Assembly (NCBI GenBank): GCA_004213405.1
Contig: SGYR01000003.1
Location: 4,925-68,924, forward strand
Direction of reading: 5' to 3'
Source: Candidatus Actinomarinales bacterium
GTDB taxonomy: Bacteria; Actinomycetota; Acidimicrobiia; Actinomarinales; Actinomarinaceae
DNA length: 64,000 nucleotides
The position numbers were made by a program, and so were the translations under genes. The notes beneath the pieces were generated by a model. It saw only the letters and a list, made by a program, of their open reading frames with translations, was not told the DNA's origin and did not search any database. This document shows, one piece after another, positions 9,819 to 43,202 of the stretch; positions within the stretch are counted from its first letter, which is position 1, and every line of letters starts with the position of its first letter.

Positions 9819-10513
9819 TGGATGTCAAAGTTAACATTTTAAGATATAACCCTGAGACAGATAGAAAAGGTCATTGGGAAGAATATATCCTCGAAGCTGA
9901 TCCTGATGAGAGAATATTAGATTTACTTCACAAAGTTAAATGGTTTGATGATGGAAGCTTAGCATTTAGAAGATCATGCGCTCACGGAGTTTGTGGATCC
10001 GATGCAATGGTTGTTAATGGGGAAAACATGCTAGCTTGTCAGGTTCTTGTTAAAGAAGTTAGTACACCAATTAAAATCGAACCTATCAGAGGCCTACCAG
10101 TCATAAAAGATTTAGTAGTAAATATGGATTCTTTTTTTGATTCTTATAAAAAAGTAATGCCTTATCTTGTAAATGATGATGAGCCTGGTGAGAGAGAAAG
10201 GCTGCAATCTCCTGAAGATCGAGACAGGTTTGAAGATACTACAAAATGTATTTTGTGTGCTGCTTGTACAACAAGCTGTCCTGTTTTCTGGACTGCTGAT
10301 ACATATGTGGGACCAGCAGCGATTGTAAATGCACACAGATTTGTATTTGATTCACGCGACAATGCTTCAAAACAAAGACTTGAAATTTTAAAAGATGTAG
10401 ATGGAGCATTTAGATGCAGAACCGCATTTAATTGTACTTCTGCATGTCCTCGTGGTATTCAGGTTACTAAAGCCATCGAAGATGTTAAAAGAGAAACCCT
10501 TACCATCAATTGA
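9818..10513 (+). CDS. sdhB: succinate dehydrogenase iron-sulfur subunit
   Basis: 231 aa. Cys clusters CAHGVCGSD, CILCAACTTSCP and CTSACP. Confidence 0.97.
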   Translation: MDVKVNILRYNPETDRKGHWEEYILEADPDERILDLLHKVKWFDDGSLAFRRSCAHGVCGSDAMVVNGENMLACQVLVKEVSTPIKIEPIRGLPVIKDLVVNMDSFFDSYKKVMPYLVNDDEPGERERLQSPEDRDRFEDTTKCILCAACTTSCPVFWTADTYVGPAAIVNAHRFVFDSRDNASKQRLEILKDVDGAFRCRTAFNCTSACPRGIQVTKAIEDVKRETLTIN

Positions 10514-10785
10514 TTGAAGATATCCTTAAACAATTCAAAAGTAATCTGACAGATAAAAATATTGATCTAAGTTCCATTTATTTTGAAATTACAGATATTG
10601 ATAAAACATTTAACCTCGATAGTTGTGTCCAAATAAATTCATCAATTGAAGATGGAAAATTTTTAAAATTTAAAATCTCTACAGAAAACTTATTATTAAT
10701 TGTTAAAGGAAAAAAACATCCAGAAGATCTTCTTTTTAATGAAAAAGTAAAGATTTCTGGGGATATAAGTATTCTTGCTCCATAA
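10510..10785 (+). CDS. SCP2 (sterol-carrier-protein-2-like) domain protein
   Basis: 91 aa. The C-terminal pattern LLLIVKGKKHPEDLLFNEKVKISGDISIL matches the SCP2 G-x-l-p...G-k-l-k-i-x-G-D motif. TTGA overlap with the sdhB stop. Confidence 0.6.
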   Translation: MIEDILKQFKSNLTDKNIDLSSIYFEITDIDKTFNLDSCVQINSSIEDGKFLKFKISTENLLLIVKGKKHPEDLLFNEKVKISGDISILAP

Positions 10786-10789
10786 AAAG

Positions 10790-10813
10790 AAAAGACGACT
10801 TTCGTCGTCTTTT
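10790..10813. terminator. bidirectional intrinsic terminator between the sdh operon and hup
   Basis: AAAAGACGAC-TTTC-GTCGTCTTTT, a perfect 10-bp stem flanked by A and T runs, between convergent genes. Confidence 0.8.
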
Positions 10814-10832
10814 CAAATTTGATTAAAGTGCT

Positions 10833-11105
10833 TTAGTTTAAAGCGTCTTTTAATCCTTTTGCAGCTTTAAAAGCTGGTGCATTCTTCGCAGCAATTTGGA
10901 TTGTTTCTCCTGTTGCTGGATTCCTGCCTTGTCTTGCAGCCCTGTATCTTGACTCAAAAGTACCAAAACCAGCAATACTTACTTTATCACCATTTTTCAT
11001 ACCATTTGTTACGCCATCGAACACGGCTTCTACAGCTTTTTTAGCATCTGATTGTGACAACCCTACTTCTGCTGCAACAACGCTGGCTAATTGATCTTTA
11101 TTCAT
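10833..11105 (-). CDS. hup: HU-family DNA-binding protein
   Basis: 90 aa. GFGTFESRYRAARQGRNPATGETIQI arm motif. Confidence 0.95.
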   Translation of the reverse strand: MNKDQLASVVAAEVGLSQSDAKKAVEAVFDGVTNGMKNGDKVSIAGFGTFESRYRAARQGRNPATGETIQIAAKNAPAFKAAKGLKDALN

Positions 11106-22150: not shown

Positions 22151-22486
22151 ATGGAAAGTGATAAATCAACTAATTTTTTTGAATTAGATATTCGTGTCGG
22201 AAAAATAATTAATGCAGAAATTTTCGAAGAAGCTAAAAAACCAGCATACAAACTGACGATTGATTTTGGTGATTTAATTGGCACTAAAAAGACCAGTGCA
22301 CAGATAACAAACTATAAATTAGATGAACTTCATGATAAGCCTTGTATAGCAGTTATAAATCTTGGAAATAAACAAATAGGACCATTTATGAGCGAGTGCT
22401 TAGTTTTAGGATCAATTTCTGAAAATGGAGATGTACTATTGCTTCAGCCATCCGACAAAGCAGAGCTTGGAGACAAGGTTTCCTAA
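22151..22486 (+). CDS. csaA: tRNA-binding domain protein (CsaA/EMAP-like)
   Basis: 111 aa. LDIRVGKIINAE...KKPAYKLTIDFG...GPFMSECLVLG matches CsaA. Confidence 0.85.
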   Translation: MESDKSTNFFELDIRVGKIINAEIFEEAKKPAYKLTIDFGDLIGTKKTSAQITNYKLDELHDKPCIAVINLGNKQIGPFMSECLVLGSISENGDVLLLQPSDKAELGDKVS

Positions 22487-22956
22487 CCTATTTTATTTTC
22501 AAAATACTTAGGATAAAATGTACCAACTCTTCTTCCAAGTTTTTCACCTTCATTATTAATCAATACATATGTTGGAGTATTGTTTAAGTTATATATATCT
22601 ATAAACTCATGATCTTTTTGCTTACTTGCATTTATAGAAACAAAATAGACATCTGGATTTTTCTTTTTAAATTCATCAACTATGAACTTTGAAGCAGTGC
22701 AACCTAGTCAGTAGTCTGAGTAAAACTCAATTATTGAGTATTGGTAATCTGAAATGTTATAAGAGTCATCAACCATACTTCTATTTGATGTATAAAGAAT
22801 AAGGAATCCAAATATACCCAAAACAAATAAACTAAGAAAATAAAGAACAGTTATTGGCTCATAAGCAATAAAAATGATAGCGAGTCCGATAACCCATCCC
22901 GTGGGAAGATAGAGCAAACTATACCTGTTTAATATTCTAAGAAACTTTTTTTTCAT
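22483..22956 (-). CDS. membrane-anchored thioredoxin-fold protein with in-frame TGA at the CXXC position (selenocysteine candidate, or pseudogene)
   Basis: The ORF-track piece ends ...IIEFYSDY-TGA (22710-22708). The same frame continues for 74 codons (LGCTASKF...NNTPTYVLINNEGEKLGRRVG...) to TAG at 22485-22483. Joined, it reads as a Trx fold with U-L-G-C in place of CXXC. Start taken at ATG 22956 (MKKKFLRIL). Confidence 0.6.
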
Positions 22957-22990: not shown

Positions 22991-23401
22991 ATGGATTTCG
23001 TTAATGAATTACGAAAAAGAGGTAAAAGAATAACTAATGCAAGAGAAGTTGTTTGCAAAATTCTTGAAACATCTGGGCATAAACACTTTACTGTTGAAGA
23101 GCTACATAAACTTTCATTAAAAAAAGATAAAAATATTGACTTAGCTACTGTTTATAGAACTCTAGAACTTTTAGAAAATATAAATCTAATTGAACATTCC
23201 CACCAGGTACACGGGTCAGGATTATATTTTGTAAAAGATGTATATTCAAATATACATATTGTTTGTGAGTCATGTGGAGACATTTCAGATCTTGATATAA
23301 AAACATCCAAAAAAGTAAATGATCTAATAACTAGTAAAACAAATTTTAGAGAGATAACAAATCACTTCGTATACTCGGGATATTGCAAAAAATGTAAATA
23401 A
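22991..23401 (+). CDS. Fur-family metalloregulator (Nur/Zur/Fur-like)
   Basis: Winged-helix motif ATVYRTLELLE, then CESCG and CKKCK zinc-site pairs. TATAAT lies 10 nt upstream of the ATG; the TTG at 22985 is also possible. Confidence 0.88.
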   Translation: MDFVNELRKRGKRITNAREVVCKILETSGHKHFTVEELHKLSLKKDKNIDLATVYRTLELLENINLIEHSHQVHGSGLYFVKDVYSNIHIVCESCGDISDLDIKTSKKVNDLITSKTNFREITNHFVYSGYCKKCK

Positions 23402-23410
23402 ATCTTTTAT

Positions 23411-23425
23411 TGCAAATAATTTGCA
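23411..23425. promoter_or_regulatory. perfect 7-1-7 inverted repeat TGCAAAT-A-ATTTGCA, candidate Fur/Nur-type operator
   Basis: Lies in the 39-nt gap between the Fur-family gene and cbiQ, 15 nt upstream of the cbiQ ATG. Has Fur-box 7-1-7 architecture and can also be read as TTGCAA-N5-TTGCAT. Confidence 0.6.
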
Positions 23426-23440
23426 TTAAGATATAAAAAT

Positions 23441-24205
23441 ATGGAAACATCCCATTCTCATCATTTAGAAACTCATAGCGACTCGTATTTAGTAAAAATT
23501 AAACCTGAAATAAAATTACTTTCCTTTTTTGCAATTATTCTCTCTATTGCCTTTTTGAGTTTAGAAAACAATGTTTCGGTTGTACTTCAAGCAGTAATAG
23601 TTGCGGGTTTATTGATTGTTTCAAGATTACAACTTAAAACATATTTAAAAAGACTTTCAATAGATATACCATTTATATTGTTCGCCTTATTTTTACCATT
23701 TGTGAGTAAAGGGAGTGGAGAAGTCTTAACAAGTTTTTTTAATTTCAGTATTTATAAGACTGGAGTTGATGAAATGATATCAATTCTGATAAAAATTACT
23801 CTTTGTGTTACATTGGCAATTGTTCTTACTGCGACAACGTCAAATATCGAAATAATATATGGATTACAGAAACTTAAAGTATCACCTTTGTTAATTTCTA
23901 TATTTTCTTTTGCAATTAGATATATTGATGTATTCATTGACGAGGTAAAAAGAGTAAAAATATCAATGCGCTCTAGAGGTTATTCTGAAAAAGGAATAAA
24001 AACACTTAAGCCCCTTGCTTTTGCATCTGGTGCCTTATTGATTAGGGGGTATGAAAGAGGAGAAAGGGTTTATAATTCTATGATTTCTAGAGGCTTTAAA
24101 GGAACGTTAAAGCTAGAGGCACGAGAGTTTAATTCATCTAATTTAATTCTTCTAATTTCTATATTTTCAATTGTAATTTGTATTGTAGATAGGTTTGTTT
24201 TATGA
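23441..24205 (+). CDS. cbiQ: ECF transporter transmembrane (T) component, CbiQ-like
   Basis: 254 aa polytopic protein with an SMRSRGY (Ala-Arg-Gly-type) coupling motif. His-rich N-terminus METSHSHHLETH. Confidence 0.85.
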   Translation: METSHSHHLETHSDSYLVKIKPEIKLLSFFAIILSIAFLSLENNVSVVLQAVIVAGLLIVSRLQLKTYLKRLSIDIPFILFALFLPFVSKGSGEVLTSFFNFSIYKTGVDEMISILIKITLCVTLAIVLTATTSNIEIIYGLQKLKVSPLLISIFSFAIRYIDVFIDEVKRVKISMRSRGYSEKGIKTLKPLAFASGALLIRGYERGERVYNSMISRGFKGTLKLEAREFNSSNLILLISIFSIVICIVDRFVL

Positions 24206-24948
24206 ATCAGGAATACCTCAATGTAGATAACTTAAGTTTTGAATATCCAGATGGATTTAAAGCTCTTGAAAATATAAATCTAAGTTTATCAAAAGGTGAA
24301 AGGCTTGCTGTATTAGGCCCTAATGGAGCAGGTAAAACTACCCTTATTCTTCATTTGAACGGGATTCTAGGTGATTTAAAAGGACAAATTACATTAAATA
24401 ATAAAGATTTTTCCGAAGAAAATATTTCAAAAATTAGAAAATCTGTAGGTTTAGTTTTCCAGGATCCTGATGATCAACTATTTATGCCAACCGTGTTAGA
24501 AGATGTAATGTTTGGACCAAAAAATTTTGGATTCAGTGATGAGTTAGTGAAGAAAAATTCAATCAACGCACTCGAACAAGTTAAGATGTTACAGTTTAAA
24601 GACAAACCACCACACCATTTAAGCTTTGGTCAAAAAAGAAAAGTGGCAATAGCAAGTGTTCTGGCTTCAGAGCCTGAATTACTAGTTTTAGATGAACCTA
24701 GTTCAAATTTAGATCCTGCTTCTAGGAGGGAACTAATAGATATACTTAAAAATTTAGATGTATCAATTATCCTTGTTACGCATGATTTACCAATGGCATT
24801 GGAAATTTGTAATAGAAGTGTAATTTTAAACAACGGTAAAATTACTGCAGATGATGACACTTATAAAATTCTTAAAAACGAAAAAATTATGTCAGACAAC
24901 AGGTTGGAATTACCTTTTGGATTTGCCCTTCATCATTTAGAAGAGTGA
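24202..24948 (+). CDS. cbiO: ECF transporter ATPase (A) component, CbiO-like
   Basis: Walker A GPNGAGKTT, LSFGQKRKVAIASVL, LVLDEPSSNLD. ATGA overlap with cbiQ. Confidence 0.9.
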   Translation: MNQEYLNVDNLSFEYPDGFKALENINLSLSKGERLAVLGPNGAGKTTLILHLNGILGDLKGQITLNNKDFSEENISKIRKSVGLVFQDPDDQLFMPTVLEDVMFGPKNFGFSDELVKKNSINALEQVKMLQFKDKPPHHLSFGQKRKVAIASVLASEPELLVLDEPSSNLDPASRRELIDILKNLDVSIILVTHDLPMALEICNRSVILNNGKITADDDTYKILKNEKIMSDNRLELPFGFALHHLEE

Positions 24949-41219: not shown

Positions 41220-43016
41220 TTATTCCACTGTCACTGATTTTGCTAAATTTCTTGGCTGATCAATTGATTCACCATTAAGGTTAGCGACATGATAAGCAAT
41301 GAACTGGAGTGGAATTATGGATATGACAGTAGTTAAAATTTCATTACTATCTGGAAGGGTGACATATTCGTCAGATATATTTTCTAATTTTTCTGAATGA
41401 TTATCACCAATTGCTATGACATAAGCTCCTCTAGCAATAACCTCTTGTACGTTACTAGTTGTTTTGTCTAACAAGTGATTTTGACTAGCAGTTACAATTA
41501 TCGGAGTTCCGTCTTCAATTAAAGCAAGAGTTCCGTGTTTTAGTTCTCCAGCTGCCAACGCTTCTGCATGTAAGTAAGAAATTTCTTTTAATTTTAAAGC
41601 ACCTTCTGCTGCAAGTGCATAATCTAGCCCTCTCCCAATAAAATAAATATCATTCTTTTTATAAATTTTTTCAGATATATCTTTTATTTGTTTCTCACAA
41701 TCCATAGTCTCTTCAATCAATTTTGGTAGTTTGGCAATCTCATCAAAAGAAACATCTAATTTATTTGCAGAATCCCAATGTTTAGCTAACAGTAATTGCC
41801 CAACTAACATTCCAAGATAAGCTTTAGTTGAAGCTACGCCTATTTCTGGGCCAACGTGTAAGTAAAAAACGCTGTCAGCCATTCTTGCTAACGAGCTACC
41901 CACAACATTCACTAAAGCAAGCACATGAGCACCATTTTCCCTTAAAAGCTCCGTCGCAGCAATGGTGTCCATAGTCTCACCAGATTGTGAAATTACAATG
42001 CCTAAATCGTTTTTGCCAACTATTGGTTCTCTATATCTAAATTCCGAAGCAAGTTCGACACTGACTGGAACTCCTAGAACTTTTTCAAATAGGTCTTTCC
42101 CGAATAAACCAGCATGGTAAGCAGTGCCGCATGCAACTATCCAAATTTTTTCATACTTTGATGCTTCATCTTGTTTAATTGGAATTTCTTTAGAAGTTGT
42201 TTCAAGTCTTCCAGAAATAGTTCGTTCTATTACTTCTGACTGTTCAAGTATTTCCTTATACATAAAGTGGTCATACCCAAGCTTTTCAGCTTCGGAAACC
42301 TCCCAGTCTATTTCTTGAATTTCTCTTTCAATCTCGTTCAATTCTGAATCAAACAACTTATATTGACCATTTTTAATTTCTACAAAATCCCCATTTTCCA
42401 AAAAAATCATTTTATTTGTGTGTTCTAAAATAGCTGCTGAATCAGATGCTAGAAATACTTCGTTTTCTCCAACACCTAAGACAAGAGGGCTCATTAAACG
42501 GCCTGCAACGATTGTTCCTTCTTCTTTTGTAGTAGTTACAACAAGAGCATATGTTCCTTCTAAAGTTTTTGCTACATCAGTTACAGTTTTCAACAATTGA
42601 CCATTCCATTTTCTACTTAATTCAACTGCAACAACCTCTGTGTCAGTATCAGATTTAAATTCAAAACCTTCTTTTAAAAGATCTTTCTTAATTTCTGCAT
42701 AGTTCTCGATTATTCCATTATGAATGATTGCAAATTCTTCACTATTGTCAGAATGTGGATGAGCATTAACATCATTTGGAACTCCATGAGTTGCCCATCT
42801 TGTATGACCAATACCTATATTGCCTTTAATGTTGCTATCTTTTAAATAATTTTTTAAAACGTCGAGTTTACCTTCTTTTTTTTCAACAGTAATTTTGTTA
42901 CCATCAGAAATTGCAATTCCAGCTGAATCGTATCCTCGATACTCTAAACGTGATAAACCATTAATTAGAATTGGTAATGGTTCTTTTGGGCCTGAATACC
43001 CGACTATTCCACACAT
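41220..43016 (-). CDS. glmS: glutamine--fructose-6-phosphate aminotransferase
   Basis: 598 aa. MCGIVGY N-terminal nucleophile and tandem SIS domains. Confidence 0.98.
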   Translation of the reverse strand: MCGIVGYSGPKEPLPILINGLSRLEYRGYDSAGIAISDGNKITVEKKEGKLDVLKNYLKDSNIKGNIGIGHTRWATHGVPNDVNAHPHSDNSEEFAIIHNGIIENYAEIKKDLLKEGFEFKSDTDTEVVAVELSRKWNGQLLKTVTDVAKTLEGTYALVVTTTKEEGTIVAGRLMSPLVLGVGENEVFLASDSAAILEHTNKMIFLENGDFVEIKNGQYKLFDSELNEIEREIQEIDWEVSEAEKLGYDHFMYKEILEQSEVIERTISGRLETTSKEIPIKQDEASKYEKIWIVACGTAYHAGLFGKDLFEKVLGVPVSVELASEFRYREPIVGKNDLGIVISQSGETMDTIAATELLRENGAHVLALVNVVGSSLARMADSVFYLHVGPEIGVASTKAYLGMLVGQLLLAKHWDSANKLDVSFDEIAKLPKLIEETMDCEKQIKDISEKIYKKNDIYFIGRGLDYALAAEGALKLKEISYLHAEALAAGELKHGTLALIEDGTPIIVTASQNHLLDKTTSNVQEVIARGAYVIAIGDNHSEKLENISDEYVTLPDSNEILTTVISIIPLQFIAYHVANLNGESIDQPRNLAKSVTVE

Positions 43017-43049: not shown

Positions 43050-43190
43050 AGACTGCTGTAAATTGTCTCTGTTCACAGATTTCTCTATGTTTTTAAACAA
43101 TTTATTACGACTGCAGAGCCGAGTATGCATCCGCCGAATGTTTCGATAGCATACTTCCTCGTCACCTTTTTCAAGGCCTGGCGCTAATTG
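43050..43190 (-). promoter_or_regulatory. glmS ribozyme (GlcN6P-dependent self-cleaving riboswitch) in the glmS 5' leader
   Basis: The minus-strand RNA reads A/GCGCCAGGCCUUGAAAAAGGUGACGAGGAAGUAUGCUAUCGAAACAUUCGGCGGAUGCAUACUCGGCUCUGCAGUCG.... It contains the conserved AGCGCC cleavage site, GACGAGGA and UUCGGCGGAUGC core blocks. The region is GC-richer than its surroundings. Confidence 0.85.
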
Positions 43191-43202
43191 CTCGTTATTA
43201 CA

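Follow-up and report, generated by a model that had tools for sequence, protein, structure and literature searches.

Thioredoxin-like selenoproteins are known from marine metagenomes, three of them (AACY01037136, AACY01000927 and AACY01011298) being listed under "Thioredoxin (Trx)" in the Sargasso Sea selenoproteome (Zhang, Fomenko & Gladyshev 2005, Genome Biol 6:R37; PMC1088965 supplement). Here we describe a member of the same family encoded on the minus strand of a stretch of 64,000 nucleotides from a Candidatus Actinomarinales bacterium (GenBank assembly GCA_004213405.1, contig SGYR01000003.1, positions 4,925 to 68,924; "the window" denotes this whole 64-kb stretch), where a single gene carries an in-frame TGA at codon 83. 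Residues 61-157 of its product differ from AACY01037136 (which begins MVDESYK, reads IIEFYSDYuLGCTASKF across the active site and ends KYFENKIG) at 5 of 97 positions (95% identity), the UxxC motif and the TGA being shared, while AACY01000927 and AACY01011298 represent more divergent clades of the family. A first-pass annotation of the window, made from the sequence alone, had proposed a membrane-anchored UxxC thioredoxin-fold selenoprotein and had pointed to relatives in marine metagenomes; the 2005 listing contains that very family, and the proposal is further supported by homologs with Cys or TGA at the same column, by a hairpin in the TGA forms and by reported selenocysteine (Sec) machinery. 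We put the probability at roughly 0.88 that UGA codon 83 is decoded as Sec, giving a membrane-tethered thioredoxin-fold selenoprotein of Ca. Actinomarina.

The family is therefore already known as a predicted selenoprotein, and use of Sec by Actinomarina has also been reported already. The host was unknown in the Sargasso listing and is Ca. Actinomarina/Actinomarinales here, and the 2005 open reading frames (ORFs) started at an internal Met or Val, so that a two-helix membrane anchor was missed. A recent preprint on the same organism group names only a 78-amino-acid family, selD and a K07090 family, with no thioredoxin-like selenoprotein, and its supplement holds no list of selenoproteins; it found no Sec insertion sequence (SECIS) element with Rfam models, whereas a hairpin and its covariation are described below (bioRxiv 10.64898/2026.04.03.716425).

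The gene and its in-frame TGA

Re-reading the coordinates on the minus strand confirmed the arrangement given in the first-pass annotation: YQYSIIEFYSDY-TGA(22710-22708)-LGCTASKFIVDEF, with 74 open codons between the TGA and a TAG stop. The gene begins MKKKFLRILNRYS at ATG 22956 and runs through IIEFYSDY into the TGA. At the start position, 112 distinct homologous genes have ATG in 99 cases and TTG in 13; this conserved ATG is the true start, and the TTG at 23058 used by the ORF track is an upstream extension. As had been claimed, the part after the TGA lacks a start of its own, containing no ATG and, as sole alternative, a TTG at codon 132 that would yield 26 amino acids.

The window has a G+C content of 33.6%, and TGA ends 19 of its 79 other long ORFs, with short and unremarkable extensions beyond the TGA; the genetic code is therefore standard, as the first-pass annotation had held on the same grounds, and a reassigned code is ruled out. 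A scan of the whole window for ORFs joined across a TGA returned this as the only pair free of overlap with another long ORF, and no further credible selenoprotein gene was found in it.

Conservation across Actinomarinales

A protein search recovered 43 marine-metagenome relatives (47-97% identity), the full-length ones all printed with "W" at column 83. The listed products of these relatives do not match translation with the bacterial code, and the DNA codon is TGA: the database Trp at the Sec column is a gene-caller artefact, produced by a model with TGA as Trp applied to short low-GC contigs. This artefact, seen in P0001-P0041, P0057, P0059, P0071, P0093 and P0145, hides selenoproteins as "W" proteins. 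Standard gene callers also split or truncate the gene (the ORF track stops at codon 82); both this and the false Trp of the metagenome sets are fixable.

Homologs were then counted in a scan whose query, an alignment covering the last 74 residues, sidesteps the ambiguous column. The scan returned 49 species-level (GTDB) genomes, almost all of them carrying the label Candidatus Actinomarina, Actinomarinales or OCS155, plus 80 metagenome loci. Codon 83 was TGA in 135 of 135 motif-bearing loci, always followed by exactly 74 codons, and in 136 of 136 loci covering the codon once a locus with an altered motif (L054) is included; TGT or TGC occurred in none. These loci come from single-cell genomes, metagenome-assembled genomes and many metagenomes, and reach down to ~52% protein identity. 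The motif was lacking in two loci, one of them (L109) cut by a contig end, the other being L054, which keeps the TGA. L84, G85 and C86 are otherwise invariant in Actinomarinales. In L054 (positions 9997-10010, metagenome-assembled genome JBEROH010000022.1) the motif reads U-L-G-F, with Phe in place of the resolving Cys86, the sole such case in 136 loci, which could be a genuine variant or a consensus error.

No stop besides codon 83 was found among 112 distinct full-length genes, in which variability by codon position was 0.22/0.12/0.35 for the part upstream of the TGA and 0.18/0.11/0.33 for the part downstream. The two halves are under the same coding constraint, a pattern of purifying selection. 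These results bear on the possibility, raised in the first-pass annotation, that the gene is a very recent pseudogene, and on the related one that a TGC or TGT was turned into TGA by a sequencing or assembly error. Although TGA is only a single base away from either codon, it recurs in 136 of 136 independent loci and across 49 species-level genomes, close relatives with TGC or TGT were not found among these loci, and the downstream frame of 74 codons has not decayed in sister genomes; the chance of a pseudogene or an error is close to nil, and we consider the idea refuted.

Cysteine forms in the wider family

When 1.8 billion representative proteins were searched with a profile, a wider family emerged, with ~160-amino-acid members that are 17-25% identical to the window protein and share its plan, namely a conserved N-x-Y-S motif, two hydrophobic helices, a thioredoxin domain and an invariant cis-Pro. 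At column 83 they carry either the first Cys of a CxxC motif (P0054, P0058, P0068, P0078 and others) or "W", so that homologs with Cys and homologs with TGA, both of which the first-pass annotation had proposed to look for, do exist. Distant "W" forms for which DNA was retrieved all have TGA (L137-L143, L148-L150), and the Cys codon is TGT in L145 and TGC in L144 and L147. The Cys form with TGT (P0054, locus L145) lies in a neighbourhood like that of the window, comprising Fur, the gene itself, tRNA_bind, FMN_red, an acyltransferase, YceI, NUDIX, a tRNA synthetase and UvrD, with neighbours 40-63% identical to their window counterparts. L145 and the window gene are a positional Sec/Cys ortholog pair.

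Sec is a classical replacement for a catalytic Cys, and in bacteria its insertion has to compete with release factor 2. This competition lends some appeal to a scheme in which the UGA mostly stops translation and acts as a regulatory switch, the main product being an 82-residue two-helix membrane peptide and the full-length protein a minor, selenium-dependent one; the first 82 residues do hold conserved positions, including N10, Y12, S13, P18 and W21. However, the downstream 74 codons are constrained as strongly as the upstream ones, and in Cys-form relatives both parts are always made as one protein, which makes such a switch highly unlikely. It would in any case still require Sec insertion, and would refine the Sec reading of codon 83 without replacing it.

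A SECIS-like hairpin downstream of the UGA

The 8-bp hairpin that the first-pass annotation had pointed to after the TGA is present where it was placed, with the sequence AAGUUCAU-AGUUG-AUGAAUUU, 19-39 nt downstream of the UGA; 26 nt separate that codon from the loop. Across 60 distinct Actinomarinales sequences its stem positions are paired in 93% of cells, and the loop reads A-G-U-U-G/A, the G and both U being invariant in the order; distant TGA forms have GUU, or GUG in one lineage, at the same place. A lower stem (CUU with AAG) in the fold of the window sequence was dropped, as it is not conserved in relatives.

Constraint at the RNA level is visible in codon choice. Codons 91-94 are always TTC-ATA-GTT-GAT/AAT in the 112 distinct genes, while the same amino acids elsewhere vary their synonymous codons freely, and mean synonymous entropy is 0.32 bits over codons 90-96 against 1.21 elsewhere (Mann-Whitney p = 6e-4). 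One stem pair covaries within the order, as U-A, U-G and C-G, and is never mismatched. Between six TGA-form lineages the stem keeps its register with replaced sequences (AAAUUCAU/AUGAAUUU; AGCCUAU/AUAGGUU; AGCCUG/CAGGCU; CCUGU/ACAGG): 94.8% of cells are paired, 6 of 7 pairs have changed on both sides, 0 of 500 shuffles match this, and controls slid along the sequence give 16-44%.

The hairpin was also compared with the bacterial SECIS (bSECIS) model as given in PMC13188914, Fig. 2A. Its 5-nt loop and 7-8-bp upper stem lie within the ranges of that model (3-9 nt and 4-16 bp, respectively), a G stands in the first two loop positions (in the model usually followed by G or U), and the 26-nt distance from UGA to loop agrees with the model's spacing. 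With the hairpin taken alone, distant TGA forms fall on both sides of the model's energy limit of -7.5 kcal/mol, two passing (L137, -10.0; L138, -7.8) and three failing (L141, -6.2; L148, -4.2; L149, -5.3).

The first-pass annotation had suggested checking whether the hairpin is conserved only in TGA-bearing homologs, and this held in part: every TGA form examined has it, and among the Cys forms L145 lacks it (3 of 7 pairs) and L147 has none that folds, but L144 keeps 6 of 7 pairs in register. The association of hairpin and TGA is good but imperfect, in a small sample of three Cys forms and six TGA lineages.

Proposed decoding of the UGA

The proposed mechanism is that UGA codon 83 would be translated as Sec, the mRNA hairpin, with its loop A-G-U-U-R, serving as a bacterial SECIS that would bring SelB-GTP-Sec-tRNA(Sec) to the ribosome. 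The machinery that this demands is taken from the literature: selC, selA, selD and a divergent selB were reported in 84 of 84 complete Actinomarina genomes, together with about five deep-Sep selenoprotein candidates per genome (bioRxiv 10.64898/2026.04.03.716425). We also picked from the 2005 Sargasso supplement (PMC1088965) a selD selenoprotein with an "MRLT" prefix and found relatives and contigs, in which selD has an in-frame TGA (MRLTQYSHGSG-U-ACKL) and downstream hairpins on marine contigs of GC 33-34%; the prefix is the one given for Actinomarina selD in the preprint (bioRxiv 10.64898/2026.04.03.716425). On these contigs the selD gene (L151, positions 9929-10954, and L152-L170) is annotated as a 317-amino-acid protein without its N terminus.

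A number of observations count against decoding as Sec. The window hairpin is weak, at -3.7 kcal/mol alone, -6.0 for UGA to +45 and -7.0 for 70 nt, and is no more stable than shuffled sequence (z = +1.06 for 70 nt), so that its significance comes from conservation and covariation and not from stability. The bSECIS energy limit (<= -7.5 kcal/mol) is reached by only 12 of 60 distinct Actinomarinales sequences, and Rfam returned no match to the hairpin, a gathering scan of the window finding a glmS ribozyme only and a permissive scan of 22560-22800 finding nothing. About six lineages contribute to the covariation, which goes together with amino-acid changes, and the conserved K-P-x-V-D-R peptide may account for part of the stem complementarity. 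The hairpin kept in a Cys form (L144, positions 651-1139, TGC, GC 55%) reads CCUAUC-GUG-GAUAGG, which may be the remnant of an earlier SECIS or a consequence of that same peptide. On the side of the machinery, its presence in Actinomarina is reported by one 2026 preprint, "Actinomarina, resolved", in which selB scores below the profile threshold (bioRxiv 10.64898/2026.04.03.716425). The window and the sequence flanking 46 genome loci yielded no tRNA-Sec and no sel gene, ARAGORN detecting no tRNA in the window, these 46 loci or 7 selD loci, and no accession or sequence overlap links the selD contigs to an Actinomarina genome.

A rival reading is that translation passes the UGA with no selenium involved: Trp, Cys or another standard residue would be inserted by a near-cognate or suppressor tRNA, the hairpin would stimulate read-through, and the product would be a WxxC or CxxC thioredoxin-like protein. 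The lack of Sec machinery around the loci examined, the weak hairpin below the bSECIS energy limit and the W printed by public gene callers all speak for it. However, that W is an artefact and TGA is a normal stop in the window; homologs have the catalytic first Cys of their CxxC motif at this column; the G-U loop and its spacing suit the SelB-type SECIS model (PMC13188914); the machinery and several selenoproteins per genome have been reported for every complete genome surveyed (bioRxiv 10.64898/2026.04.03.716425); and insertion of plain Cys is hard to square with TGA in all 136 loci and TGT or TGC in none. We consider read-through without selenium very unlikely, and favour Sec at codon 83.

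Fold and membrane anchoring

The first-pass annotation recognized landmarks of a thioredoxin fold, which profile and structure searches bore out. With U read as C, the protein scores 24.1 bits against Pfam PF00085 (Thioredoxin), a borderline match for a cut-off of 23.5. In an AlphaFold2 model built from a 24-sequence alignment (mean predicted local distance difference test score 83), the part after the anchor consists of strand 73-79, helix 84-99, strand 103-109, helix 117-121, strands 129-134 and 139-144 and helix 149-156, in the order beta-alpha-beta-alpha-beta-beta-alpha. Residue 83 sits directly ahead of helix 84-99, the position of the nucleophilic Cys in thioredoxins. A Foldseek search of the PDB puts thioredoxins at the top (E ~3e-6, target TM ~0.7), and the profile match, the fold order, the position of the redox motif and the cis-Pro loop place the protein in the thioredoxin-fold superfamily (PF00085 / CL0172).

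Two N-terminal transmembrane helices, also proposed earlier, appear in the model and agree with hydropathy (Table 1). The N-terminal tail carries a charge of +5 and the loop between the helices -1, a distribution that, under the positive-inside rule, would put the domain on the cytoplasmic side in the Actinomarina form. In several Cys-form relatives the loop between the helices is instead rich in Arg, and their domain would be expected outside. The N-terminal hairpin of two membrane helices would tether a minimal thioredoxin-fold domain with the active site Sec83-Leu-Gly-Cys86, and the protein would be a membrane-bound oxidoreductase of the thiol/disulfide type cycling through a U83-C86 selenenylsulfide.

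Gene neighbourhood

The gene is very tightly packed, its stop overlapping the 3' end of the convergent tRNA_bind gene by 4 nt (22483-22486). The Fur-family gene on the other side, described in the first-pass annotation as back to back with it, is in fact arranged head to head (divergent), with ~34 nt between the ATGs at 22956 and 22991. Adjacency on the Fur side is preserved in L001 and L145, and on the tRNA_bind side in L002, L006 and L145. Beyond Fur, the window (22991-24948, plus strand) has CbiQ and an ABC ATPase without CbiM, and the syntenic Cys-form locus (L145, 2019-4957) has Fur, CbiM, CbiQ and CbiO. Elsewhere in the window, a full-length glmS ribozyme (RF00234, 86.6 bits; 43050-43196, minus strand) lies directly 5' of a glmS-sized ORF (41220-43016).

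Table 1. Features of the candidate selenoprotein gene and its neighbours (window positions)
Feature	Position	Strand	Basis
Complete candidate selenoprotein gene	22483-22956	-	157 codons + TAG; ATG 22956-22954, TAG 22485-22483; full-length homologs all 157 amino acids
In-frame TGA, codon 83, probably read as Sec	22708-22710	-	Conserved; aligns with first Cys of CxxC in distant homologs
Redox motif U-L-G-C, residues 83-86	22699-22710	-	Ends beta-strand 1, opens helix 1
SECIS-like hairpin	22669-22689	-	8-bp stem, 22689-22682 with 22676-22669; 5-nt loop AGUUG, 22681-22677
Predicted membrane helix 1, residues 13-31	22864-22920	-	AlphaFold2 helix; Kyte-Doolittle 19-residue means >1.6
Predicted membrane helix 2, residues 36-57	22786-22851	-	AlphaFold2 helix; hydropathy peak 2.5
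Minimal thioredoxin-fold domain, residues 71-157	22486-22746	-	PF00085 over residues 71-143; AlphaFold2; Foldseek
cis-Pro loop T127-P128-T129	22570-22578	-	P128 invariant across wide family
Fur-family regulator, divergent neighbour	22991-23401	+	Pfam FUR 1.2e-22
CbiQ, same direction after Fur	23441-24205	+	Pfam CbiQ 2.2e-32
ABC ATPase, after CbiQ	24202-24948	+	Pfam ABC_tran 7.7e-32
CsaA-like tRNA_bind protein, convergent neighbour	22151-22486	+	Pfam tRNA_bind 4.3e-12

In two high-GC Cys forms the gene is followed, with a 4-nt overlap, by a methyltransferase of the TPMT/TehB type (L144, 1136-1705; L147, 2737-3318). This adjacency may indicate a functional link for the wider family, whose role, on a speculative and rather unlikely reading, could lie in the handling of chalcogen or thiol compounds and not in general disulfide reduction.

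Significance and comparison with known systems

Actinomarina ranks among the smallest and most abundant of free-living marine bacteria, and a selenoprotein that it retains universally bears on why a costly Sec pathway survives genome streamlining. A wider interpretation, which we offer as speculative and on balance unlikely, is that the gene defines a distinct, unnamed two-helix thioredoxin-fold redox family whose Sec form is obligate across Actinomarinales (0 Cys forms in 136 loci; Cys appears only in the syntenic relative, which is more distant) and is a core client justifying the Sec pathway in a ~1.1-Mb genome, with the AU-rich, sub-threshold hairpin read by the divergent SelB as a low-stability SECIS variant that standard finders miss.

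The hairpin resembles the E. coli fdhF-type SECIS and the bSECISearch consensus in lying directly after the UGA within the coding sequence, in its small G-U loop and 7-8-bp upper stem, and in its 26-nt spacing. It differs from the fdhF type in an AU-rich, very weak stem (-3.7 kcal/mol) with no conserved lower stem or bulged U, and the energy limit is missed in 48 of 60 sequences.

The Sargasso listing filed the family with classical thioredoxin. The likeness to TrxA (WCGPC) extends to the order of the fold, the cis-Pro loop and a catalytic residue immediately preceding helix 1, but the window protein has no counterpart to TrxA's first strand and first helix, is membrane-tethered, has Y-U-L-G-C for W-C-G-P-C and is 17-20% identical. 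Assignment to TrxA proper (NCBIfam TIGR01068) was rejected on this motif and on a score of only 20.6 bits against an equivalog cut-off of 96.8. Like TlpA, ResA and CcmG (DsbE), the protein has a thioredoxin-fold domain that carries an xxC redox motif and is anchored to the membrane through hydrophobic helices at the N terminus, but it has two helices instead of one, lacks their extra insert and has charges that suggest a cytoplasmic domain. Membership of TlpA/ResA/DsbE was likewise rejected, as the window protein has no match to these NCBIfam models and its distant relatives match ResA, TlpA and DsbE only at E 2e-3 to 9e-3, far under the cut-offs; NCBIfam gives no family-level name to the window protein, which has sub-threshold thioredoxin matches only.

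Compared with the 2005 and 2026 reports, the kind of protein is unchanged, a predicted selenoprotein whose function we infer. To those reports the present locus adds a host, the full-length architecture with its membrane hairpin, universality within the order (no Cys form having been found there), a syntenic Cys ortholog and a weak, covariation-supported SECIS candidate lying under the usual energy cut-off.

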